A program made the position numbers and the translations under genes. DNA of 64,000 nt from Candidatus Bathyarchaeia archaeon (GTDB taxonomy: Archaea; Thermoproteota; Bathyarchaeia; Bathyarchaeales; Bathycorpusculaceae), in the NCBI GenBank assembly GCA_050015395.1, contig JBEKBM010000007.1, forward strand, positions 33,796 to 97,795, given 5' to 3'. The notes beneath the pieces are model-generated. The model was not told where the DNA came from. It saw only the letters and a list, made by a program, of their open reading frames with translations, and made no database searches. Positions 15,315 through 38,039 of this stretch are shown here, piece after piece (position 1 is the first letter of the stretch; each line of letters begins with the position of its first letter).

Positions 15315-15677
15315 ATGGCGCAGGACAATTTCAAACCAGTAGTTGTCTGGCTTATTCTCAATGGAAAAGCAGAAGAAGCGCTCAGGCTGCTGGCGAAAAA
15401 CTATAAAGTAAACGTTCCCAAACTAAAAGTAGGTTTACCAAAGGGACACAAAATTAAAGCGTTCGGCTGTTACACCTCTAAGAACGAAACCATTTCAGTT
15501 CTAAACAGTGACGTGGTGGTTAATCCCTTTGTTATTCTGCACGAGTTTTATCATCACCTGCGCAGTAAAGCGGTGGATAAAATGCACAGGGGTACAGAGA
15601 AAAACGCTGACAAATTTGCCATAGAATTTATCGAAGCCTACAAAACCTACGCGCTTAGGGGAGCAGTTACTCCTTAG
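15315..15677 (+). CDS. Small HExxH zincin-like protein
   Basis: ILHEFYHH...TEKNADKFA; its stop codon lies inside attL. Confidence 0.65.
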   Translation: MAQDNFKPVVVWLILNGKAEEALRLLAKNYKVNVPKLKVGLPKGHKIKAFGCYTSKNETISVLNSDVVVNPFVILHEFYHHLRSKAVDKMHRGTEKNADKFAIEFIEAYKTYALRGAVTP

Positions 15678-15678
15678 T
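15667..15678 (+). repeat. att core, left (TTACTCCTTAGT)
   Basis: Identical to 26293-26304. Confidence 0.88.
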
Positions 15679-15764
15679 AAGCCTAATTAAAAGACGGATA
15701 TTTAATTAACAGTTCCAGAAGTCTTAAATCTGCATAGCGTAGAATAGAAATGAGGTAAAAATGA

Positions 15765-16085
15765 ATGAGTGACCTTAATGTATCAGTAAATGTAGAAAAG
15801 GGAAAAATAAAAAAAGCCTTAGACTACGCAGAAGAATTGTATGTAGTATTATCAGAAATAAACACAGTTTTGTGTTCTAAGGAATTTGAAAAACAGTGTA
15901 TAGAGCATGGAATATCCAAGAAATTTATTAAATTCACTCAAGACGCAAAACCTCTATTGGACAAATTTGAGAGTACGATTTCTGATTTATCTGAGGAAAA
16001 AATTAAAGAGTGGAAAGCTGAAAAAGAAGCATCCCAAGGCAATCAAGCGCCTCCCGGGAATGGGGCGGCTTTTCAGCCAGAATAA
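15765..16085 (+). CDS. Hypothetical protein (element cargo)
   Basis: 106-aa ORF with GAGGT SD and TTAAAT TATA-like box. Confidence 0.65.
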   Translation: MSDLNVSVNVEKGKIKKALDYAEELYVVLSEINTVLCSKEFEKQCIEHGISKKFIKFTQDAKPLLDKFESTISDLSEEKIKEWKAEKEASQGNQAPPGNGAAFQPE

Positions 16086-16375
16086 ATATGCTAATTGCCC
16101 TGAAGGAAACACAAACGCCGACAGAACCCGCAAACCCCGAGAAAAAGATAAAGATTCGCCTTAAAGCGCAAAATGAATGGAGGTATCTTACCCCAACAGA
16201 ATATCATCGAATAAAAGAACAGATGATAGAGCAGAGAAAACAACAAAAAAATAAGACAGTTAGATAAGGCTTTTTGCTAAAGTTGGTTATTTATTTACTC
16301 ATATAGGTTAGAAGGTGGGTTACAGCTAACATACCAGCCTCACATTAAACAGTAAGACTAAGGAATGTTTAAGGC

Positions 16376-16690
16376 TCAAAAATGCTCTGGATACATTTTT
16401 GCGATTGTTGGATGCGCCTTTTCAAACTCTCTAGTTGCATGGTACGCTTCAGCATATTCCTTTTGAATAGCTTTAAGCTCTGTAGCTAATGCAATGAGTT
16501 TATCAGGGTTTACGCTCATATCTGCTTTGAATATTCTATCAGGGTCACTTATATTATCAGAATACGTTTTTTTTAATGCCTCGCCGAAAGAACCGTTGAA
16601 TTGATCCCCCAAACCTTCCACTCTCTTATGAAGCTCAGATTCGCGTTTTCTTAGTTTAACAAGAGTTCCAATTAATTCTTCTTCACTCAT
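16376..16690 (-). CDS. Hypothetical coiled-coil protein (element cargo)
   Basis: 104-aa ORF with GAGGAG SD and AAGTCTTAAAT promoter like that of 15765. Confidence 0.65.
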   Translation of the reverse strand: MSEEELIGTLVKLRKRESELHKRVEGLGDQFNGSFGEALKKTYSDNISDPDRIFKADMSVNPDKLIALATELKAIQKEYAEAYHATREFEKAHPTIAKMYPEHF

Positions 16691-16780
16691 TAATTTCTCC
16701 TCTATTCGTTTTATTATTCCCGAGAAGATTTAAGACTTATCATCTATTAAAACTCATAAAATCTTAAATGTTAAATAGGT

Positions 16781-17095
16781 CTATTGATCCGCTCCGCTCT
16801 GGATCAACGGGGTTTTCTCAAGCTCTGGAAGGTTCTTTTTGAACCGTAACTCTGGGTTATCCTCAAGCATTTTAATCTCGGGCCTATACTGTAAAAACTT
16901 GATGTGGTTGTCATAGTTCCGCAAATAATAGCCGTCGTGCATTGACCGCTGCATGGCTTTAGTTGAAATATGCCTAAGTGTGCTGCTTTGCCAATCTGCC
17001 GCTTCTTGCTGCCATAAATCCCCGAATAACGCAAAGATTTCTTCGTCTGTTTTGCTTCTTGCTTGCCAATATTTCGGCGTATCTGTTTCACTCAT
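16781..17095 (-). CDS. Hypothetical protein directly downstream of TerL
   Basis: MSETDTPKYW..., abuts the terL stop; far too short for a portal. Confidence 0.6.
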   Translation of the reverse strand: MSETDTPKYWQARSKTDEEIFALFGDLWQQEAADWQSSTLRHISTKAMQRSMHDGYYLRNYDNHIKFLQYRPEIKMLEDNPELRFKKNLPELEKTPLIQSGADQ

Positions 17096-17096
17096 T

Positions 17097-18413
17097 TTAA
17101 TATCCCTCATTATCGTTATGGTTTATGAAACCCGCGCCTAACCCGCTGGGCGCGTATTGATTCTTAAGCTCCCATGCTGCCAATGCCAATGAGCAAACGC
17201 AGTCGTCATGGCTGCCCTCTGGAGCACTATAAAATATTCTGCCCGTTGACCCGATTTCATAACTGAATGCCTCAAGCTCCGATTGCAAGGCTCTATATTC
17301 AACTGCAAATTCTCGGCGTTGAATTGAGCCTGGAAACCATAAGGCGCCTTCATCTAACATGTGGCTAAGATTCTCTATTATTTCTTGTTTTGATGTGTTG
17401 GTGAATTTGAAAGGTCGAACTTGAACCCCGGCGTTTACTAAGCCGTCATAAATCGGATCACCGACGCCCGTCGCGTCAACCAATAGAACATAATGGTTGA
17501 AGCGGTCACAGAAACTTTTAACGCGGCCTAGCTGGAAACTCCAATCTATACGGTTGAACCTGTCGAACCCTACCAATTCGCCTTTTTCGTTAAGCGCTAT
17601 TAGAACCGTGTAATCCATAGTTTTCCCAAAGTCGGCGCCTATCCAAACGTAATGCTCTGGGTTAAACTGCTCTATGCCTTCCCTGATTTGCCTTGTGATA
17701 AACCTGAATACTTCGCCTTCGCCTTCCAGAAATTCCCCATAGATTTCTTGTTTGCGTAGAAACTCAGGCATATCCTCCGCGATTGCGTCTATGCTCTGTT
17801 TCTCAAGGAATCCTCCCCGTTCAATCGTGTTTTCGTAGCTGCTAAAGCTGAATGAAGCATACAGCGGGTTAAACGGGTCTAGGCCCTTGCAATACAATTT
17901 GTGAAACCAGTTTTTGCCTTTAGCTGTGCCGATAAAATCAGCCCAACCGTTAAAATCTATCAGCGACGGCTCCAGCTCTCCGCTCCAACGGGTTTCTTTC
18001 AGCTTCGCGGCTTCGTCTATTACCATCCCGTTTAAACCTGAGCCTCTAAGCGAATCTTCTCTATCCGCTGAATGAAACCAACACTCCGATCCATTAATGA
18101 GTTTTAGGCGTCTTATCATGCCTTGCGTTTCTTGTTTGCCATGCGGAGCGATAAGAGCGGCTGGGGTTAACTCATTGACTTTTCTTGTAACGGGTGCAAG
18201 TTCCTTGTAAAACGGAACTACCCACCAATAGAGACCGTTTGGCTTGTCCTTGTCTGCCATAGCGGTTAGCATTCTGACCCACTCTAAATGAGTTTTGCCA
18301 AACCGTCTGCCGCAATCAATGACCTTAAACCGTTTGTGGCAGTTAAAAACCATGCTTTGTGCAGGATGCAACTTAAGGGAAACTCGGAGGGGAGGCACTA
18401 ACGTTTGAGTCAT
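17097..18413 (-). CDS. terL: Terminase large subunit
   Basis: Walker A CGRRFGKT, LRG, Walker B MVIDEAA, GTAKG; RNase H-like GADFG...D, VDATGVG, HDDCV. Confidence 0.93.
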   Translation of the reverse strand: MTQTLVPPLRVSLKLHPAQSMVFNCHKRFKVIDCGRRFGKTHLEWVRMLTAMADKDKPNGLYWWVVPFYKELAPVTRKVNELTPAALIAPHGKQETQGMIRRLKLINGSECWFHSADREDSLRGSGLNGMVIDEAAKLKETRWSGELEPSLIDFNGWADFIGTAKGKNWFHKLYCKGLDPFNPLYASFSFSSYENTIERGGFLEKQSIDAIAEDMPEFLRKQEIYGEFLEGEGEVFRFITRQIREGIEQFNPEHYVWIGADFGKTMDYTVLIALNEKGELVGFDRFNRIDWSFQLGRVKSFCDRFNHYVLLVDATGVGDPIYDGLVNAGVQVRPFKFTNTSKQEIIENLSHMLDEGALWFPGSIQRREFAVEYRALQSELEAFSYEIGSTGRIFYSAPEGSHDDCVCSLALAAWELKNQYAPSGLGAGFINHNDNEGY

Positions 18414-18895
18414 TAATGAACTTCCAAAACTATGGGTTGCTGTTGCGTCTGGGTGTCGGCTGCTTCTTGCGGTTGCTCTGTTGATGCAATGTTTGCATCT
18501 ATCGGTTTAGGCACGGTGTTGTTTTCAACTGACAGAATAATGTTTGGAGGCGTATTGTTAACCATTTCAGCGGGTAAGAAACTGCATAGTTGCTGGGCTG
18601 CCTCAAGTCGAACCCGCATGTAACCGATTTTAGCGTTATCGTTTGTTGCTTGTCTAAGCTGATATGAGGCTTCGCGGATTGTTTGCAGATAGATGTTTGC
18701 GATTTGCTGCCGTAAGATCTCCGCATTCTTTAAGTCAACGAAAACGCCAATCCATTTAGGCATAAGTCGAATGTGATAACGGGTTGTTGCCTCGTTAACT
18801 TGGCATGATTCTTTCAATATTTGAACAGTCTCGCTTCTGCTAAAGCCTTCTGCATTGAGCTTAAGGATTTTTAAGCGTATTTCGTCGCTGTTCAA
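18413..18895 (-). CDS. Putative terminase small subunit
   Basis: N-terminal HTH-like segment, helical middle, TAATG coupling to terL. Confidence 0.55.
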   Translation of the reverse strand: MNSDEIRLKILKLNAEGFSRSETVQILKESCQVNEATTRYHIRLMPKWIGVFVDLKNAEILRQQIANIYLQTIREASYQLRQATNDNAKIGYMRVRLEAAQQLCSFLPAEMVNNTPPNIILSVENNTVPKPIDANIASTEQPQEAADTQTQQQPIVLEVH

Positions 18896-19072
18896 GTTTT
18901 GCCTACCCCTTTTCGTTAACTTTTCTTATTTTTTCCGTCTATACTGTCGGTTGCTCGATGGGGTTGTCTTTTAGTTGGGGTCTCCAATTCGCTTCGATTT
19001 GCTTAATGTCGTCTCCCACTTGATTGTCAACTCTGCCTAAGATTTCCTTATAGCGGGTTTCGGATGTTTCGC

Positions 19073-19255
19073 TCATTGTTTGCTGTCGCCTCCACCGGTT
19101 AAGTTTGAGTAAGAAGAAATTAAATCGTTTAAAGCAGTATCAAGATGCCGGGATGCGCTTTTGCTTTTCTCAATTAAACTTTCAACTTCGCTTAGTTTAG
19201 CGGTTCTGGGCCTAGCTGTGACAGGGTTCTTTTGTTGTGTTGATTGGCTCGGCAT
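19073..19255 (-). CDS. Hypothetical small protein in the packaging operon
   Basis: 60 aa, tightly coupled; followed by a 45-aa ORF at 18939-19076. Confidence 0.5.
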   Translation of the reverse strand: MPSQSTQQKNPVTARPRTAKLSEVESLIEKSKSASRHLDTALNDLISSYSNLTGGGDSKQ

Positions 19256-19257
19256 TC

Positions 19258-20250
19258 TTATGATTCTTCCTTAACTGGTTTTTGCGGTGACTGCAAATTT
19301 TTCACTTCATTGAAAACTATCGGGTTCATAAGTGACCCCATGCCTTGATTGCCATGTTCGATTATGTCGATTTCCGTGGCTATCTCGAAGTCTTTTTGCG
19401 CTTCGCAGTCTGATTTAGCGAATAAACCGTTGCTTTCTTGTTGGGGTTGCTTGGTGAATGCCCTGTTAAGTTCATTTATGAACTGCGTGTTTGCCTCGAT
19501 TTCTTTTTGAGCCGCGGCTAAAACAGCGTTTGCATTTAGCTTTTTTGTGTGTGAAAGTTTCGTTTGTAAATTACCTATTTTTTGGAGCAGGTCGATTTTA
19601 GCGGTAACTTTGGCTTTTTCTTCTGTTTCCTGCAATTTTTGCGCTGTGACAAGTGCGCCTAAAATCTTAATTTGCAGGTATTTTTTTGCTTTCCAATTTG
19701 CTAAACTGTTGATGTTTTGGCTGGCATTCATAGCTGAAGCAAAACCGCTGGCAATTCTAAATTTTGCATCCTTATAGGCTGGACTTGCCACGATTGAGAG
19801 CTCACGGCAAACGGGATTATGCACAATTTCGTGCGCTCCCTCGCATAAATGGCTGAGTTTCCCATCTATACGCGAAGGCTGCCCGCAGCCCGAGCAAGTA
19901 ACATTTTGAGAATCGACCTGCATGGACACACTATCTAGGTAGCCTTTTTTGATGCGGTCTTTAATCGCGGGGTCGCCTATCTTGCCCTTGAACCAAACTT
20001 TATCATCGCCTTGCATTCTAGCCTCGGGAATCGTACCCACAATATCTAAAACTTTTTCGCTGTGATCTACTCGGATTTTTGAGTCAAGCAAAGATTGAAT
20101 TAAAAACGGCAGATCCTCTTTTGGAACAGCCCATTTGTTCGCGTTGGTTGTTGAATCAATACAGATGCCTTCTATTATTAAATCGCCGTCGGTTGACGGT
20201 TGATCTGACGCTTTAAAATCAAAGTTGTATTTGAGACTTAGCCCATTCAT
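19258..20250 (-). CDS. HK97-type prohead maturation protease with a C-terminal coiled-coil (scaffold-like) region
   Basis: IEG...NAN.W, VDH, YLDSVSM, CSGC...HLC insertion, ELSIVASPAYKDA, then ~150 aa helical tail. Confidence 0.75.
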   Translation of the reverse strand: MNGLSLKYNFDFKASDQPSTDGDLIIEGICIDSTTNANKWAVPKEDLPFLIQSLLDSKIRVDHSEKVLDIVGTIPEARMQGDDKVWFKGKIGDPAIKDRIKKGYLDSVSMQVDSQNVTCSGCGQPSRIDGKLSHLCEGAHEIVHNPVCRELSIVASPAYKDAKFRIASGFASAMNASQNINSLANWKAKKYLQIKILGALVTAQKLQETEEKAKVTAKIDLLQKIGNLQTKLSHTKKLNANAVLAAAQKEIEANTQFINELNRAFTKQPQQESNGLFAKSDCEAQKDFEIATEIDIIEHGNQGMGSLMNPIVFNEVKNLQSPQKPVKEES

Positions 20251-20621
20251 TCAAAAAAGCCTCCAAGGACATGGTCTATTATGCGCTGTATTGTCTCGGT
20301 TGACAGTTCTGCCTCGGATGTTTTGCCAATGGGTAAAAATGTTTCTATGTGTCCTCTGCCACCATCGGTTAGCGTAGATGAAACCTGAATTTTTACGCCT
20401 TTTCCAGCGCTGTCAATAGCGTTTATGACGTTTCCAGATTGAACCACAAAAAACGGTTCACCGTTAAAGATTCTGATGTTTGGGTTTACTTGGCCTAGCC
20501 GATTATTCTTTAAGATGTCTGCCCAGCTCTGGATTTTCTCTGCTGGAGATTTCTCTTTCCATTGATGTTGAAGAATATAGAAGGGGTTAACGATTTCAAA
20601 TTTTGCTGTTTGGCTACTCAT
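20247..20621 (-). CDS. Hypothetical protein
   Basis: MSSQTAKF..., ATGA overlap with the protease gene. Confidence 0.6.
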   Translation of the reverse strand: MSSQTAKFEIVNPFYILQHQWKEKSPAEKIQSWADILKNNRLGQVNPNIRIFNGEPFFVVQSGNVINAIDSAGKGVKIQVSSTLTDGGRGHIETFLPIGKTSEAELSTETIQRIIDHVLGGFFE

Positions 20622-20772
20622 TTTTCGCAATCTCCAAAATTTTATCTCTTACGTTTTTGCTGTTTTCCGTTAAAGCGTCAAGCGTTGCCTCAAGAGCGGC
20701 TTTTTCAGCCTTAACTTTTTCACGGTGTTTTTTCTGATCTGAAGCGTTTAACTTTTTGTCTTTGCGTGGCAT
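20614..20772 (-). CDS. Small basic protein (52 aa), first gene of the packaging operon
   Basis: MPRKDKKLNASDQKKHREKVKAEKAALEATLDALTENSKNVRDKILEIAKNE*, translated manually. Confidence 0.55.
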   Translation of the reverse strand: MPRKDKKLNASDQKKHREKVKAEKAALEATLDALTENSKNVRDKILEIAKNE

Positions 20773-20776
20773 AATT

Positions 20777-20812
20777 ATCTTACGTAAGATTTAACTAATA
20801 AGTGTTTATACA
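20777..20812 (-). promoter_or_regulatory. Packaging-operon promoter with palindrome ATCTTACGTAAGAT
   Basis: Minus strand reads TGTATAAACACTTAT-tagttaaa-TCTTACGTAAGAT just before ATG 20772. Confidence 0.65.
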
Positions 20813-20880
20813 CACTTAATACAAATAGAAAACAATTAAAAAAAACATTATAACCTCGTCTAATTTAGACAAGGTTCAAA

Positions 20881-21501
20881 CTAAACATTAGGAGGTATAT
20901 AGCCGTCTTTTTTTAAGATTGCTGTTGGAATAAAATGTAAACTGCCTTTTTCAGTTATGCCAAGGTAACCTGGATATGTACGTGTAACTTCTGGAATTGT
21001 AAATTGACAAACAAGATCATGTAAAACCCTATAGGCTTTAAACAAGAGCGAATAATAATCGCTGTTGACTGCCCTGAATTTTTGGTCTATTTCTTCTTCG
21101 CTCATTTCGTTATTTATCTTGACGTTTAACCATGCGTTTTCGTATGCAATTCTCCATTTTACAAGCTCACTAGGATCAATCTTATCTAATGCCATAACAT
21201 CTTTTAAAACTACTATACATTGATTGACGTCTTTAAGGACTAACTCACGAGTTTTTTCTCTGCCTTTAACTGTTAAACTAAACTCTAATTTCCCTTTCTG
21301 TTTATAGTTTTTATGCCTTTCTTCATGTATCCACATCTGCGCCCCAGGTTTTTGATCGCCGTAATCGTCTAGTATTTTTCGGGTTTTGTTACGACTCCGA
21401 ATGACGCTTGTTAATTCTCGGAAAATCATAAAGTCTTTTTCAAACAAGGCTAACAAGACTTTGTTACGCTGGTTTTCTGAATATTCTTGTTTTTTGGTCA
21501 T
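20881..21501 (-). CDS. Putative winged-helix regulator of the element
   Basis: N-terminal wHTH-like region ending FSLTVKGRE; divergent from the replication operon; likely ATG at 21501. Confidence 0.55.
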   Translation of the reverse strand: MTKKQEYSENQRNKVLLALFEKDFMIFRELTSVIRSRNKTRKILDDYGDQKPGAQMWIHEERHKNYKQKGKLEFSLTVKGREKTRELVLKDVNQCIVVLKDVMALDKIDPSELVKWRIAYENAWLNVKINNEMSEEEIDQKFRAVNSDYYSLLFKAYRVLHDLVCQFTIPEVTRTYPGYLGITEKGSLHFIPTAILKKDGYIPPNV

Positions 21502-21530
21502 AGTTTTAACCTCTCTATTTGTACTAAAGA

Positions 21531-21561
21531 TGTATAAACACTTATAAGTCTTACGTAAGAT
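21531..21561 (+). promoter_or_regulatory. Replication-operon promoter with palindrome TCTTACGTAAGA
   Basis: TGTATAAACACTTAT-aag-TCTTACGTAAGAT, same blocks as 20777-20812. Confidence 0.65.
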
Positions 21562-21604
21562 AGGCAAACATAACAAACGAACCCGAAAGAAGGCTAAAAC
21601 AACC

Positions 21605-21787
21605 ATGACCCTACAGAAAAACTACATAAAAATTGTTGGAAGCGAAAACTTCGTTGCGCTCTCCCTGAAAGACATCGAAAAAAGATATGCGGTGCTGTCT
21701 AAACCCATAATTCAGAAAAGCAACACTGACCCCGACGTGTACTTTGTTTTTGTTCACTGTGCAGATAGCCCGTTTGCGGAGATCTAG
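21605..21787 (+). CDS. Hypothetical small protein
   Basis: First ORF of the rightward operon. Confidence 0.5.
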   Translation: MTLQKNYIKIVGSENFVALSLKDIEKRYAVLSKPIIQKSNTDPDVYFVFVHCADSPFAEI

Positions 21788-21791
21788 AAGC

Positions 21792-21974
21792 ATGGCACAA
21801 ACCCAACAGCTTTTAGCGAAATATACCCTGCAAAAGCCCAAAAAATGCTCGGATTGCGGGTATTTCCGCGGAGATAATAACCCGTGCGCTGACCTGGGCT
21901 ATTTCACCTATGCAAAAACCCGAGCGTGTAGTCAAGGCGTAACAAGAAAAGCATTGGCAAAGAGGGGTCTTTGA
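21792..21974 (+). CDS. Small Cys-rich (Zn-binding) protein
   Basis: CSDC...C...C. Confidence 0.55.
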   Translation: MAQTQQLLAKYTLQKPKKCSDCGYFRGDNNPCADLGYFTYAKTRACSQGVTRKALAKRGL

Positions 21975-24187
21975 TGATTCCGATTAAAGACCCGTTCAAC
22001 CTTGACATAGACGTAAACGGTAATACACCGCTGGAAAAGTTAACCGCTGAAAATTACGGTTTACCCTTCAAAAAGAACTTGCTTGACCAACAAAAATTTA
22101 CCGATGCTTTAGCTAAAGGCATATTTGACTTAAGCATTGACCCAAACGTGGAAGATTTCATACTCAAAGAAATACATATTTCAGTCGCATACCAGGATGA
22201 TCCGATAGTTAAAACGATTTTACATGCTGGCGTTTCAGCTTATGCGACACCGTTAAACGTAGCATTGAAAGCGGAATCTGGATCTGGGAAAAGCTACTCC
22301 ACCACTGAAACCATAAACTTTTTGCCACCTGAGGACGTTATGTTTATCGGCTCAGATAGCCCAAAAGTTTTTAGCCATTTAAACGGGATTCGCAAAGTTG
22401 TTAAAGACGGTGTGGAAGTTCTTTTCGACAATATACTTGAGCCAATGAAGCCCGACAAGAACGATTTTGACCTTGTTGAATCTTATAACGTCATGTGCCA
22501 AAAATACCGCGAAGATTTGAAAGAGTACCAGCAACTTAAAGAAAATAGCTTCTATGAAGTTGACCTTCGCAATAAGATAATCGTCTATTTGGAAAGCATT
22601 AATCCTGAAACTTTCAAGATGTTAAAGGTTACGATGTCGCATGACGGGCCTAGTATAGATCACCGCTTTGTTGATGATAAGGGAAAAGTGCATGTTACCC
22701 GATTAATCGGCGCTCCAGTTCTAATTTTCAACAGTTTAGACACTGTTTACACATCTGAGTTTGCCACAAGAACCCTAACGATTTCTCCCGTTGTATCTAA
22801 AGAGAAAATAGAAGCTGCCATGCGAATAAGCAACAGAAAAGCATGTTATCCGTGGCTTTTTGACCCTGAAAGACTAAACGTAAAAATCATCCAAGAATAC
22901 CTCCGCAAAGTACGCGACACATTGAAAGCTGGAAAAATCAAAACCATAAATGTGTTTGACGAAGTGCAAAAAGAGTTTAGCGCAAACCAAGCGCGAGACA
23001 TGCGTGACTTTAACAAGTTCCTTGAGTTAATGCCTTGCTACGCTATAATTAAACTGTTTCAACATCCAACAATCGTTTTAAAAGGCAAACGGTGTTTAGT
23101 GCCAACAATTCAAGATTTCTTAGATGCTAAAGCGGTATTTGACAGTATAAGCGAAACCACAAAGACGGGTACAGAAATGCGTATCTTATGCTTTTATTGG
23201 GATTGCGTAGCTCCTTTTACCTCTAACGGCGCCACGGTTGAAACCTTAACCGACCTATACAATAAAGACAAAAAGAAGGCTGTTAGCTCAAGAACGATAA
23301 GGGCATGGCTGGATCGCCTTGTGGAAATAGAGTTTGTGGATGCTAGAGAAGGCGAACAATTAACCGATAAGGGTTTAATTAATTATCAAAAAAAGACGTT
23401 TCACCCGTTGAAACTTAAAGGAACTAATGCAATTCTGGAAACTGCAAAAGATTTAGTGGCTATATTGGAAAAGGCGTTTGATTTATGGCTTAAAACTTGT
23501 GCAGAGGAGATAGTCACCCACCCAATTTATATTTTAAAGATAGACGGAACAGCGGTTCAAATATCTTTAGAAGAATTTAGCGAAATTGTTAAGGGAAGGG
23601 GAGCCTCTTTAACTTCACAAGTTTTTAAGGCTGAATCAACCACAGAACAGCAAACAGACGTTAAAACTATTGCAAAACCTGAAAGCGCACAAGAAACAGA
23701 TAAGAATGTGCTTTATTATCGAAAGCTCATAGTCGGCGAAAACTTTAGGTGTGACGGGGAAAGCGTTGGGTCTCAATGCTTAGACCCAGCAAAATATGAG
23801 ATGTTAAGCACGGCTGACCCGACCCATTACTGCGAAATCCATTTCCAGCGTGTCCTTAAAGATTGCACAGATAACAGTTTCAAGCTAGTGGAAAAGGTCA
23901 TAGCGCCGACTAAAACCGTGACGGTTAAGCGGTCTAAGAACGGTCAAAAATGCGATTATTGCGCTACTTTAACGTCAGAGTTTGAGTTAACCGATAATGC
24001 AGAACCATTTAAGATTTTTGTGTGCGAACTATGCCTAAAAACCAATGTTATCCCAGCGTACAAAGCGAAACCTGATTACAACATTGTTATGGCTAACCTG
24101 GACGACCCAGACGCAAACGCGAAGGACGGCCTAGGCCCTGAAACTAAAGAGTACAGCGACGACGACCCGCACAGCGGAGAGGCTTGA
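21971..24187 (+). CDS. P-loop ATPase, putative replication helicase/initiator, with wHTH and C-terminal Zn fingers
   Basis: AESGSGKS, IVYLE, EFATR, RDMRD; SSRTIRAWLDRLVEIEFV wHTH-like; Cys/His clusters near the C-terminus. Confidence 0.65.
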   Translation: MMIPIKDPFNLDIDVNGNTPLEKLTAENYGLPFKKNLLDQQKFTDALAKGIFDLSIDPNVEDFILKEIHISVAYQDDPIVKTILHAGVSAYATPLNVALKAESGSGKSYSTTETINFLPPEDVMFIGSDSPKVFSHLNGIRKVVKDGVEVLFDNILEPMKPDKNDFDLVESYNVMCQKYREDLKEYQQLKENSFYEVDLRNKIIVYLESINPETFKMLKVTMSHDGPSIDHRFVDDKGKVHVTRLIGAPVLIFNSLDTVYTSEFATRTLTISPVVSKEKIEAAMRISNRKACYPWLFDPERLNVKIIQEYLRKVRDTLKAGKIKTINVFDEVQKEFSANQARDMRDFNKFLELMPCYAIIKLFQHPTIVLKGKRCLVPTIQDFLDAKAVFDSISETTKTGTEMRILCFYWDCVAPFTSNGATVETLTDLYNKDKKKAVSSRTIRAWLDRLVEIEFVDAREGEQLTDKGLINYQKKTFHPLKLKGTNAILETAKDLVAILEKAFDLWLKTCAEEIVTHPIYILKIDGTAVQISLEEFSEIVKGRGASLTSQVFKAESTTEQQTDVKTIAKPESAQETDKNVLYYRKLIVGENFRCDGESVGSQCLDPAKYEMLSTADPTHYCEIHFQRVLKDCTDNSFKLVEKVIAPTKTVTVKRSKNGQKCDYCATLTSEFELTDNAEPFKIFVCELCLKTNVIPAYKAKPDYNIVMANLDDPDANAKDGLGPETKEYSDDDPHSGEA

Positions 24188-24477
24188 ATATGACAAGAAC
24201 AAAGAAACCCAGAATTATTAAGCAACCTAACCCTCCGCGGTGTTTACCGCTTCTTAACCTTGAGATACGGCTAGACAAAAACACGATAATTAAAGCGGAC
24301 AAGATTGAACGGTGCTTAGTAAGTCGGCGTCTTATGGGAAACCGACCCGCTGAAACGGCGCCTATGTTTATGCTGGAAAACGCGGTTATCGTCACGTCCC
24401 GCGAAGGTCAAATAATAGGCGTTGAAACCTTCGCGTCTTATGGTCTCTGGAAAGAACTGATTGCGGAGGCTTCTTAA
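24184..24477 (+). CDS. Hypothetical protein
   Basis: Coupled to the ATPase gene. Confidence 0.5.
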   Translation: MNMTRTKKPRIIKQPNPPRCLPLLNLEIRLDKNTIIKADKIERCLVSRRLMGNRPAETAPMFMLENAVIVTSREGQIIGVETFASYGLWKELIAEAS

Positions 24478-24616
24478 TGCCTTGTCAAAAATTGGGTAGA
24501 TGCGTTAATAGTAAGCCTAAAAGCGTCACTTGTAACGCGGTTGAAAATAGAAGCGGCTGCATAGACTTCGCGGAAAAAGAAACAGCTAGTTTGGTGTTCT
24601 AAAATGGATAAATGCC

Positions 24617-24838
24617 TTGTTTGCGGGTCATGGAGAGATAAGAATGTCTAAGCAAGTGCAAATTATTAAGCGGTCTGCCTCCGCGGTTTCAACTAAGTTT
24701 CTTACGGTTGAACTCCGCGGGAAAGTCTGCCGTCGAATAATCTTACCTGCCTCTAAAAATGATATTTGGAATATGCGAAGGTTTCAAGCAATTAACGGGT
24801 ATTTGGCAAACTTAGAAGATAAGGGGAGGGATAAGTGA
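24617..24838 (+). CDS. Hypothetical small protein
   Basis: In operon; flanked by Cys-rich microORFs at 24477-24602 and 24835-24966. Confidence 0.45.
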   Translation: MFAGHGEIRMSKQVQIIKRSASAVSTKFLTVELRGKVCRRIILPASKNDIWNMRRFQAINGYLANLEDKGRDK

Positions 24839-25122
24839 AAGTGTTAAGTCGTGATTGCGACGGCTGCGAAAACATGTTGAATGATTGCAAACGTCGGTTT
24901 CAACGTGTGGGCCTAGGCGAAAAAGTGTTTTGCCCTGACGGAACCGCTCATTTAATAGACGGTTAATGCGCGGGAAACGTAGTTTCTACAGCTAAAAACT
25001 TGCCAAATACCAGACATTGAAATGCGAAAAGCGTAATGAAATAAACGGTTTTTCCATGAAAAGACTAAGGGTTTTTGAGGTAAAAAAGCCCACTTAAACA
25101 CTCTTTTTCTACTATTCATTCA

Positions 25123-26223
25123 TTATTCGCTTTCAGATGCTCTATCCCCGCGAAGTTTGATCGCTCCGTGTGCTACTGCATTCAAAACTTGTCTTATTTC
25201 AGCTATTTGTTTTTCTGTGTTTGCCGTCATTTCGTCAAGTTGCTGTTTTAATTTGCGGTTTTCTTCTTTCATAAGCTCGGTTTCTTTTGACACCGCAATC
25301 AAGGCTTTAGCTGGAACGGTGCTTTGCAAGGATAAATAATCTTGATAGGCTGCTGGGTATTTCTCGGCTATTTGCTCTTGCAGAGTATTTAGGTAAGTCA
25401 TATCTTCTAACGGAATAGCCTTGCCGACGCAAAACTTAACCTGAAACTCATTGAAACCCGCACGGCTAAGATTGCTCATTACCCATGCGCGGATTTTATG
25501 AAAGCGGATTCTGCCCGTGGTTATGATGTGCGCTCTCCTTGCTAACCTCTGAATAATTTTGTTTGCGGCTGACTCGTTGATGTCGAAAATATCTGAAGTT
25601 CCATAGTTTCTTTTCGGGTTCGCTATGCGGTTTCTTTTTGGGTATTTGTCACTTTCGATAAACCATTTAGGGAGCCATTCAAGAACCAACGGGTTAAGAA
25701 CGCCTAGCCGCGGCGCGTTTGTCTTTTCGCGTTGACTTAAGAAGTAATAGAATGATTGACCCTCACTTTTTGCCTTCGCTATTAAAGATTCCACATAATC
25801 ACGTTTCAAGGCTAAAACGGCGCTGACCTCCCAGCCCAGGCTAGTTGCAAGTGCTAGGAGAGCCTTATCTTTTAAGTCGGCTACGTCAAACATTTTTTGC
25901 AAGTCGCCGTTTGTGAAAACATGGCTGGAAATATCCATTTTATAGCGTAATGTTTTTCCCCTTAAATCAAGTGGCATATCAACGGATCGCAAAAAGGATA
26001 AAATAGCTACGACGTGAGACCCCGCGGTGTTTTTGGATTTATGGATAGGTGCGTTCTGGAATCTTAGAACAAAATTGCGTTTCTCTTGAGGGGTTAAGGC
26101 TAGGAACTGTTCGACGCTGCCGTTATACCACTTGAAAAAATTTGTTATTCTTATTCGGTATTGACGTTCTGTGTTTGGGGTTCTGCATTCGCTTAACCAG
26201 TTTTCGACTTGCTGATTCAACAT
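25123..26223 (-). CDS. Tyrosine recombinase/integrase
   Basis: TPNTERQY N-domain, DKALL, REKT, RFHKIR, TYL; starts 70 bp from the right att. Confidence 0.85.
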   Translation of the reverse strand: MLNQQVENWLSECRTPNTERQYRIRITNFFKWYNGSVEQFLALTPQEKRNFVLRFQNAPIHKSKNTAGSHVVAILSFLRSVDMPLDLRGKTLRYKMDISSHVFTNGDLQKMFDVADLKDKALLALATSLGWEVSAVLALKRDYVESLIAKAKSEGQSFYYFLSQREKTNAPRLGVLNPLVLEWLPKWFIESDKYPKRNRIANPKRNYGTSDIFDINESAANKIIQRLARRAHIITTGRIRFHKIRAWVMSNLSRAGFNEFQVKFCVGKAIPLEDMTYLNTLQEQIAEKYPAAYQDYLSLQSTVPAKALIAVSKETELMKEENRKLKQQLDEMTANTEKQIAEIRQVLNAVAHGAIKLRGDRASESE

Positions 26224-26292
26224 TTAAATCGCCAATAGAATGATATGGCAGATTAGCTTATAAAGTTTTAGATAACCGTGTTTAAAATAGGC

Positions 26293-26304
26293 TTACTCCT
26301 TAGT
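26293..26304 (+). repeat. att core, right (TTACTCCTTAGT)
   Basis: Identical to 15667-15678. Confidence 0.88.
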
Positions 26305-37991: not shown

Positions 37992-38039
37992 TCTATCTCT
38001 GATATGTCTATTCTACGCTATGCAAATTTAAGACTTATT

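Follow-up and report, generated by a model that had tools for sequence, protein, structure and literature searches.

Classical phage-inducible chromosomal islands (PICI), among them the Staphylococcus aureus pathogenicity islands (SaPI), and P4 have a size of about 10-15 kb and redirect capsid size by means of CpmA/CpmB, Sid or Rcm. Classical PICI hijack packaging via a small terminase subunit (TerS), or via Rpp or Ppi, using the large terminase subunit (TerL) of the helper. The element described here, of about 10.63 kb (15667-26304), is located in a 64-kb stretch of DNA of a Candidatus Bathyarchaeia archaeon (GenBank assembly GCA_050015395.1, contig JBEKBM010000007.1, positions 33,796 to 97,795; this whole stretch is referred to as the window). 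It codes for a TerS-like protein, a TerL and a prohead protease with a helical, scaffold-like tail, and no capsid, portal or tail gene was detected in it. Among bacterial satellites, TerL marks the capsid-forming PICI (cfPICI), according to the published account of these islands (PMC10085698). According to the publications consulted, the satellites so far described for archaea are pSSVx, pSSVi and the proposed haloarchaeal SRCEs, which parasitise spindle-shaped viruses, plus a putative one from Asgard archaea, NMV2S, which is associated with a tailed virus and has no terminase or protease (Zhou et al. 2025, 10.1101/2025.02.15.638363; Meltzer et al. 2026, 10.64898/2026.08.12.739948). Finally, NitKor-E1 of Ca. 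Nitrosopumilus koreensis AR1 combines TerS and TerL in a capsid-less integrated element; its description terms it enigmatic and interprets it as probably a relic (Krupovic et al. 2019, PMC6563490).

A preliminary description of this DNA, made from the sequence, had held that the element fits neither PICI nor cfPICI, and this assessment stands, as it encodes a full-length TerL of its own, yet no capsid gene, adaptor or connector was detected. Like classical PICI, SaPI and P4, it has an integrase and a replication module, its own packaging-specificity gene and a scaffold-type protein that possibly resizes helper capsids; those satellites use TerL and protease of the helper, whereas the element encodes its own, and no sequence relationship was found. 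With cfPICI it shares the form of a small integrative island with integrase, replication gene, TerS, TerL and prohead serine protease, but cfPICI, as described, encode their own capsid protein, head-tail adaptor and connector and steal only tails, whereas none of these was detected here and the host is an archaeon. pSSVx, pSSVi, SRCEs and NMV2S likewise combine a plasmid-type replicon with an incomplete virion-morphogenesis module, but none of them has TerS, TerL and protease as far as their descriptions go.

The preliminary description had overlooked the precedent of NitKor-E1. This element, too, is archaeal, has a tyrosine integrase and a TerS gene immediately preceding that for TerL, and lacks genes for capsid, portal and tail; the same arrangement is found here, the extra virus gene being the protease. 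By its description, NitKor-E1 differs in that it belongs to Thaumarchaeota, carries VapBC and a restriction endonuclease, and has neither a prohead protease or scaffold nor a dedicated Rep of this kind. Canonical Bathyarchaeia head-tailed viruses and proviruses (L024, L026, IMG/VR contigs L221-L300 and the Fuxivirus of Duan et al.) encode homologous TerL (up to 55% identity), TerS and protease N-terminal domains (up to 58%), but they have a portal, a phrog_673 scaffold, a major capsid protein (MCP) about 300 aa long, tail genes and a protease tail motif that is absent in the element. Of the features of a complete Caudoviricetes provirus, the large terminase is present, while sequence searches gave neither an HK97-fold MCP gene nor a portal gene. 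We found no report in the literature of TerS, TerL and protease-scaffold together in a capsid-less element. It is quite possible, if somewhat short of probable, that we are dealing with a satellite that depends on head-tailed viruses of Bathyarchaeia as helpers.

Integration site, occupancy and backbone

The element is bounded by a 12-nt core, TTACTCCTTAGT, which is present as a direct repeat at both ends (Table 1) and has exactly two copies in the window, both on the plus strand. It was spotted by inspecting the element ends; automated repeat searches did not report it, neither one with a minimum length of 14 nt nor, among the 20 families displayed, a further one. Since a 12-mer repeat alone may be due to chance, the comparison with relatives decides on the ends. 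The two flanking host genes converge on each other. Of 60 other genomes belonging to the genus, 49 contain the JAB gene. In a survey of 29 same-genus loci around the JAB gene, the 120-aa gene and the JAB gene were convergent and abutting in 27, which represents the empty site. The remaining two were G003, with an integrase between the genes, and G070, with about 900 bp between them (L066 3165-4070, G070:C17); the latter stretch has no match to the element proteins and may be a remnant or another small insert. In G019 (JAB 97% identical), the junction consists of the left flank, a single core and the right flank, and the direct repeats thus reconstitute an uninterrupted target site. The locus is a site-specific integrative element in a Bathyarchaeia chromosome, and the claim that both attachment (att) ends are intact was correct.

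In the sister species G003, a different element of 11,390 bp lies between two copies of the same core (L064 3226-14615, G003:C1). Its integrase is 84% identical to that of the studied element and its Rep 34%. At the DNA level, the two elements resemble each other along about 35 nt of the left end and, at the integrase end, along the 140 nt that were compared. The cargo is otherwise different and includes a 575-aa protein with tape-measure-like PHROG matches, but neither terminase nor protease. Close relatives retaining portal and capsid genes had been named as evidence for a deletion derivative; this relative is no such fuller provirus. The att site is a hotspot for a modular family of elements.

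The integrase matches phrog_1 (E = 4e-11), whereas its PF00589 score of 17.5 bits does not reach the cut-off. Thirteen members of its family share the HxxR box and the Tyr, but the usual position of the first Arg reads GWE family-wide. A PDB sequence search gave nothing useful. Among 119 other genomes of the genus, 10 have homologs of the integrase and 11 have homologs of Rep; the Rep homologs are located in other integrated elements. Rep is grouped by the Atlas with MTBMA_p00010-type P-loop proteins, often fused to Toprim primases (primase-helicase clusters). The integrase and Rep backbone carries unrelated cargo in other elements of the genus. On the IMG/VR contig L158, a Rep fragment is accompanied by a portal-like gene and by a TerL that is 55% identical, and this type of Rep is therefore also found beside fuller head modules.

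The element was found in at least 24 peat and wetland metagenome runs, and in the four runs whose Logan contigs were compared it shows no differences. Contigs from three of four runs join position 15644 to 26293 or 26314, which is the empty site in a diverged co-occurring strain; the element is polymorphic between close strains.

Terminase, protease-scaffold and missing head genes

The preliminary description had credited the element with its own terminase. TerL matches PF03237 (E = 2.5e-7), phrog_2 (E = 4e-34) and the ATPase and nuclease domains of solved TerL structures (4zni, 5tge, 5m1f), and the 438-aa protein is confirmed as TerL. The database gene callers start it 51 residues late (P0001, 387 aa); according to the alignment of homologs, the long form with Walker A is the right one. 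Of 45 positions that do not vary among 26 homologs it retains 43, and of 64 that hardly vary it retains 62; the Walker motifs and the nuclease Asp are kept as well. This speaks against the relaxed selection on terL named earlier as a possible refutation. TerL forms a clade with P0002-P0004 (63-66% identity, support 100/99), sister to the TerLs of canonical viruses, and its nearest known relative is only 66% identical. No TerL relative above 55% identity was found in 119 genus, 400 order and 331 family genomes, and a scan of genome contigs with TerL alone gave no matches. Of 80 loci kept from a scan of metagenome contigs with a four-sequence TerL alignment, 79 had at most 38% identity and the remaining one, L110, is a 1.4-kb fragment at 62%; L110 was the only one of them compared with the element proteins, and the contigs of P0002-P0004 were not recovered among these 80.

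The 160-aa protein encoded upstream of TerL has no library match, and a PDB sequence search gave nothing useful. It has 13 phmmer matches at E <= 0.01 among open reading frames (ORFs) of related loci. The genomic context was checked for eight of them, the five IMG/VR homologs lying outside this check: seven are directly upstream of TerL (L012, L025, L026, L028, L030, L032, L033) and the eighth (L031) is 2 kb from TerL. In the predicted structure, a bundle of three helices at the N terminus leads into a long helical hairpin. The ten PDB entries closest to it in fold are without exception small terminases (phages P74-26, G20c), though with weak scores (E = 0.08-0.3). Both the context of the homologs and the modelled fold support the assignment as TerS.

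The 330-aa protein, announced as a prohead protease-scaffold, has no match in Pfam (PF04586 included) or PHROGs, and 106 database matches at E <= 1e-5 (105 excluding its own record). Its protease domain extends over residues 20-165 approximately and contains a zinc-ribbon insert (Cys119/Cys122/Cys136). His63, Ser109 and the three-Cys insert are invariant in a 35-sequence alignment, and we infer that His63 and Ser109 are catalytic. The model has a predicted local distance difference test (pLDDT) score of 87-97 over residues 20-165, followed by long helices. Its best PDB folds according to Foldseek are herpesvirus assemblins and T4 gp21 (4v07, 1o6e, 5jbl; probability 1.00, target TM <= 0.56). 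BFVD gave 244 matches at E <= 0.001; of those that bear a name, many are prohead proteases. Model and Foldseek thus bear out the predicted capsid-maturation protease fold (assemblin/T4 gp21/HK97 gp4). The nearest protease domain is 58% identical. The tail of about 160 aa is all helix and is devoid of the C-terminal motif conserved in most homologs.

The last point could be taken to mean that the tail poisons procapsids and that the element is an interference or defence island, in which the terminase and/or the protease-scaffold wreck assembly or packaging of an infecting virus and thereby protect the host population. Bacterial satellites are described as hindering helpers via packaging and capsid-size genes (de Sousa 2023; Eppley 2022), and the polymorphism between close strains would agree with such a role. 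On the other hand, no PADLOC family matched above noise, interference would not need a complete TerS and TerL whose ATPase and nuclease sites are conserved, and an own Rep and integrase are expected of a mobile entity. We therefore regard a defence island as distinctly unlikely.

Capsid, portal and tail genes had been reported as missing, and the searches with Pfam, PHROGs, tblastn and phmmer agree, giving no capsid, portal or scaffold match in the element. In addition, we built custom hidden Markov models (HMMs) for the MCP, portal and scaffold families, using 60 sequences per family, and applied them with filters off. The MCP model gave only E > 0.8 and the portal model a best E of 0.23, on the 45-aa ORF; no PHROG portal family matched, and no profile matched any ORF. 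To judge by these sequence searches, genes for a capsid, a portal, a separate scaffold and a tail are all missing from the element. In other loci, the MCP gene lies within 1.5 kb of the protease in 28 of 29 cases from the genus, one locus being cut by the contig end, and near the protease in 74 of 80 cases from IMG/VR, the other six having less than 400 bp of downstream sequence.

Capsid and portal genes might still be hidden among the unrecognised ORFs, which would make the element an autonomous miniature virus. Eleven of its ORFs have no family match at E <= 0.01 in Pfam, PHROGs, PADLOC and NCBIfam, four more have only matches far below threshold in these libraries, and the 127-aa ORF is an orphan for which the ESM Atlas model (pLDDT 0.44) gave no usable match. 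However, the ORFs other than those for integrase, Rep, TerL and protease do not exceed 241 aa (160 aa apart from the 241-aa ORF), the family models for capsid, portal and scaffold give nothing, and the protease tail, as modelled, is all helix. Moreover, every related protease locus with enough sequence encodes a capsid protein of about 300 aa, and most of them also encode a portal protein of about 450 aa. A miniature virus is thus extremely improbable.

The order of genes also differs from that in canonical relatives, which is TerS-TerL-portal (phrog_9232)-small genes-protease-scaffold (phrog_673)-MCP (phrog_1650/544). In the element, the protease is followed by TerS and TerL, then cargo, att, integrase and Rep. 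Integrase and Rep therefore lie on the arc between TerL and protease, and this order cannot be reached from the canonical circle by deletions alone. The ORF map shows four groups, with intergenic gaps of at most 156 nt and no frameshifts, gene fragments or pseudogene remains. The minus-strand run from 20772 to 16376 comprises nine ORFs of 52, 127, 330, 60, 45, 160, 438, 109 and 104 aa. The ORFs are intact, and the first eight of this run (20772-16781) overlap or are at most 43 nt apart, in agreement with the tight layout noted before, and 90 nt separate the 109-aa and 104-aa ORFs. The plus-strand run has ORFs of 76, 738, 97, 41, 73 and 43 aa and is followed by the 366-aa integrase on the minus strand.

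Possible helpers and the weight of a satellite reading

The host genome (2.59 Mb, 98.9% complete) contains two CRISPR arrays (C4:79643-82115 and C34:18387-20133) with a common 37-nt repeat; the first has 34 spacers and the second 24. In the C4 array, spacer 22 agrees at 27 of 30 nt with the capsid gene of L271, a canonical virus contig from IMG/VR (E = 0.002 for one query among 58). This match suggests that canonical head-tailed viruses infect the host lineage, and possible helpers therefore exist. None of the 58 spacers matches the element, exact 18-nt and 17-nt matches being treated as chance.

As a satellite, the element would excise when a helper virus infects the cell and replicate with its own Rep. 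Its TerS would recognise element DNA, and its TerL would cut this DNA and pump it into procapsids made of helper capsid and portal proteins. The diverged protease-scaffold would join these procapsids and mature them, possibly also steering assembly to a smaller shell that fits 10.6 kb, before helper tails complete the particles. In favour of this reading, the att core, the empty site, also seen in co-occurring strains, and the second element in the same site show that the element is mobile. The Bathyarchaeia Fuxivirus genome is described as having 31,982 bp (Duan et al.), and at about one third of it the element has a satellite-like size. Furthermore, the genes for packaging specificity and procapsid entry are all intact and stand in a rearranged compact operon. 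The satellite proposed in the preliminary description is thus upheld in its anatomy but not in its function, which is unproven and rests on gene content only, with no helper and no sign of excision or packaging.

Several observations weigh against a satellite. First, the protease has diverged: its median identity to the family is 52%, compared to 75% among the other members, and it keeps only 29 of 46 nearly invariant positions, which could be due to adaptation or to decay or relaxed constraint. Second, no helper provirus is present in the genome, where the family HMMs found one portal gene (contig C3) and no MCP, PF05065 being absent as well. Third, four further TerL genes in the genome have no capsid gene nearby, so that stray packaging genes are common. 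Fourth, none of the six Rep-family loci fetched has a TerL or protease. Fifth, the suggested search for elements with the same gene set, although carried out, found none: not one of the 102 other protease loci with enough downstream sequence lacks a capsid gene, and the studied element is a single instance. Sixth, the element had a depth equal to that of its flanks in the assembled contigs of all four runs, and no circular junction was seen in them; both points are weak, as they derive from contigs only. Last, the only printed analogue, NitKor-E1, is read as a relic in the account available (PMC6563490).

In line with that account, the element may be a chimeric or relic cryptic element, in which an integrase and Rep element acquired a fragment of a head-tailed provirus by recombination and TerS, TerL and protease are undecayed passengers. 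The unique layout among the loci examined, the faster divergence of the protease and the 1:1 depth fit this explanation, as do the partial packaging modules that are common in the genome and its relatives (C3, C29, C31, C35, L069). On the other side, the three virus genes are full length with their key residues kept, as is most of the invariant core of TerL (43 of 45 positions); they are tightly coupled with orphan ORFs in one operon without pseudogene debris, and their order needs more than deletions. In addition, the distance to the nearest TerL and protease implies that these genes stayed open over a long divergence, unless the donor is unsampled. Taken together, we consider a relic rather unlikely, though by no means negligible.

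As to the further TerL genes, the one on C3 (92413-96947, L006) comes with a full portal gene and no capsid gene, while those on C29 (L008 14617-16638), C31 (L010 13891-15360) and C35 (L012 11332-13421) have neither portal nor MCP. Two of the four adjoin ParA-like genes, and one has a TerS homolog and ParB-like nucleases. Locus L069 holds a similar partial packaging module. A phrog_10 match in the same genome (16 bits inside an 827-aa ORF) was not regarded as a capsid gene, and a phrog_544 search of the genome was uninformative, as the control gave no match anywhere.

The presence of TerL beside ParA or ParB-type genes and without capsid genes on three other contigs hints at contexts outside virions. 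The terminase could accordingly have been repurposed for the DNA metabolism of the element, for instance to cut replication concatemers, with the protease in an unrelated role and no virion at all. However, the terminase complex is held to be specific to tailed viruses and herpesviruses and, in the account consulted, had not been identified in non-viral mobile elements (PMC6563490), and apart from procapsids there is no obvious place in which a capsid-maturation protease with a scaffold tail would act. Such repurposing is very improbable.

Remaining genes and biological meaning

The features of the element and its flanks are compiled in Table 1. The ORF at 20881-21606, previously labelled a regulator, loses this label: it has no match in Pfam or PHROGs, a single NCBIfam match of 15 bits (cut-off 950) and a best PDB match at E = 0.97. 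For the 109-aa ORF, one distant homolog (P0230, 43% identity) was found among 1.84 billion representatives. Searches of the element proteins with PADLOC and NCBIfam gave nothing above noise, and Rfam only the two flanking tRNAs plus one sub-threshold match outside the element. The GC content of the element is 41.2%, that of the genome 42.6%; TerL is GC-richer than its surroundings in four of five compared loci (level in L024), so that GC is uninformative.

Table 1 Features of the integrated element and its flanking host genes (positions in the window).
Feature	Position	Strand	Remarks
Left flanking host gene, 120 aa, HExxH metalloprotease-like	15315..15677	+	beside JAB gene in empty-site genomes
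attL core	15667..15678		12-nt direct repeat, overlaps stop codon of flanking 120-aa gene
29-nt motif	15720..15748	+	17 nt upstream of first cargo ORF
Cargo ORF, 106 aa	15765..16085	+	no family
Cargo ORF, 59 aa	16088..16267	+	no family
ORF, 104 aa, last gene of packaging operon	16376..16690	-	no family
ORF, 109 aa, directly after TerL	16781..17110	-	single distant homolog
TerL, 438 aa	17097..18413	-	ATPase and nuclease domains; start overlaps TerS stop
TerS-like, 160 aa	18413..18895	-	N-terminal three-helix helix-turn-helix, then long helical hairpin
Two small coupled ORFs, 45 aa and 60 aa	18939..19255	-	no homologs found
Prohead protease and helical scaffold-like tail, 330 aa	19258..20250	-	
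ORF, 127 aa	20247..20630	-	orphan; 4-nt overlap with protease gene
ORF, 52 aa, first gene of operon	20614..20772	-	
ORF, 241 aa	20881..21606	-	no convincing family or PDB match
ORF, 76 aa, Cys-rich, zinc-ribbon-like	21744..21974	+	upstream of Rep
Rep, P-loop replication-type protein, 738 aa	21971..24187	+	GSGKS Walker A
Four small ORFs (97, 41, 73, 43 aa) after Rep	24184..24966	+	
Tyrosine integrase, 366 aa	25123..26223	-	HxxR box and Tyr conserved across family
attR core	26293..26304		same 12 nt, overlaps stop codon of flanking JAB gene
Right flanking host gene, Prok-JAB/MPN, 130 aa	26293..26685	-	

The 29-nt motif has a TATA-like core and nine copies in the genome (up to four mismatches): two in the window, at 15720-15748 (plus strand) and 38007-38035 (minus strand), and others on C1, C5 (two), C8 (two), C15 and C17. 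Both copies in the window end 16-17 nt before a start codon. The motif is probably a host-type promoter or operator shared by a small regulon, one copy of which would drive the first cargo ORF. Loose ends of metagenome contigs at 15719 and 15741 had been considered as variant elements; this was rejected, because a motif repeated nine times breaks k-mer assemblies. The 43-aa Cys-rich ORF (24835-24966, plus strand) has six paralogs elsewhere in the genome (55-76% identity) and copies in the canonical provirus locus L026 and in the IMG/VR contigs L231, L236 and L247. These proteins belong to a small gene family common to the host, viruses and the studied element.

Two further loci were observed among the relatives. 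In L070 (9977-12841, G066:C6), a single 954-aa frame joins TerL (phrog_2) to a portal (phrog_146); either the two genes are fused or the frame reads through from one into the other. L067 (2848-13443, G200:C11), from a Thermoproteota single-cell genome, encodes a TerS-like protein, a TerL (54%), a 761-aa methylase-like protein, a primase-helicase and an integrase. It adjoins a tRNA-Pro, lies between host heliorhodopsin/MFS genes and the contig end, and is without portal or MCP. We did not retain it as a bounded comparable element, as no att repeat was found and its limits are unproven; its TerL is not sister to that of the element.

A more far-reaching version of the satellite reading, which we regard as doubtful, would make the element a type of satellite unseen in any domain, with its own TerS, TerL and protease-scaffold, with capsid, portal and tail from the helper, and with capsids sized for 10.6 kb via the diverged tail. 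Together with the P0002-P0004 clade and other capsid-less terminase elements, it would then stand for widespread hidden hyperparasitism in soil archaea. What terminases are for in archaeal elements without a capsid has been a question since NitKor-E1 (2019). If the element is a relic, it documents how non-viral archaeal elements acquire packaging and maturation genes from viruses. If it is a satellite, satellite biology would extend to archaeal tailed viruses, with a division of labour unseen in bacteria, where the TerL-bearing satellites (cfPICI) also make capsids.

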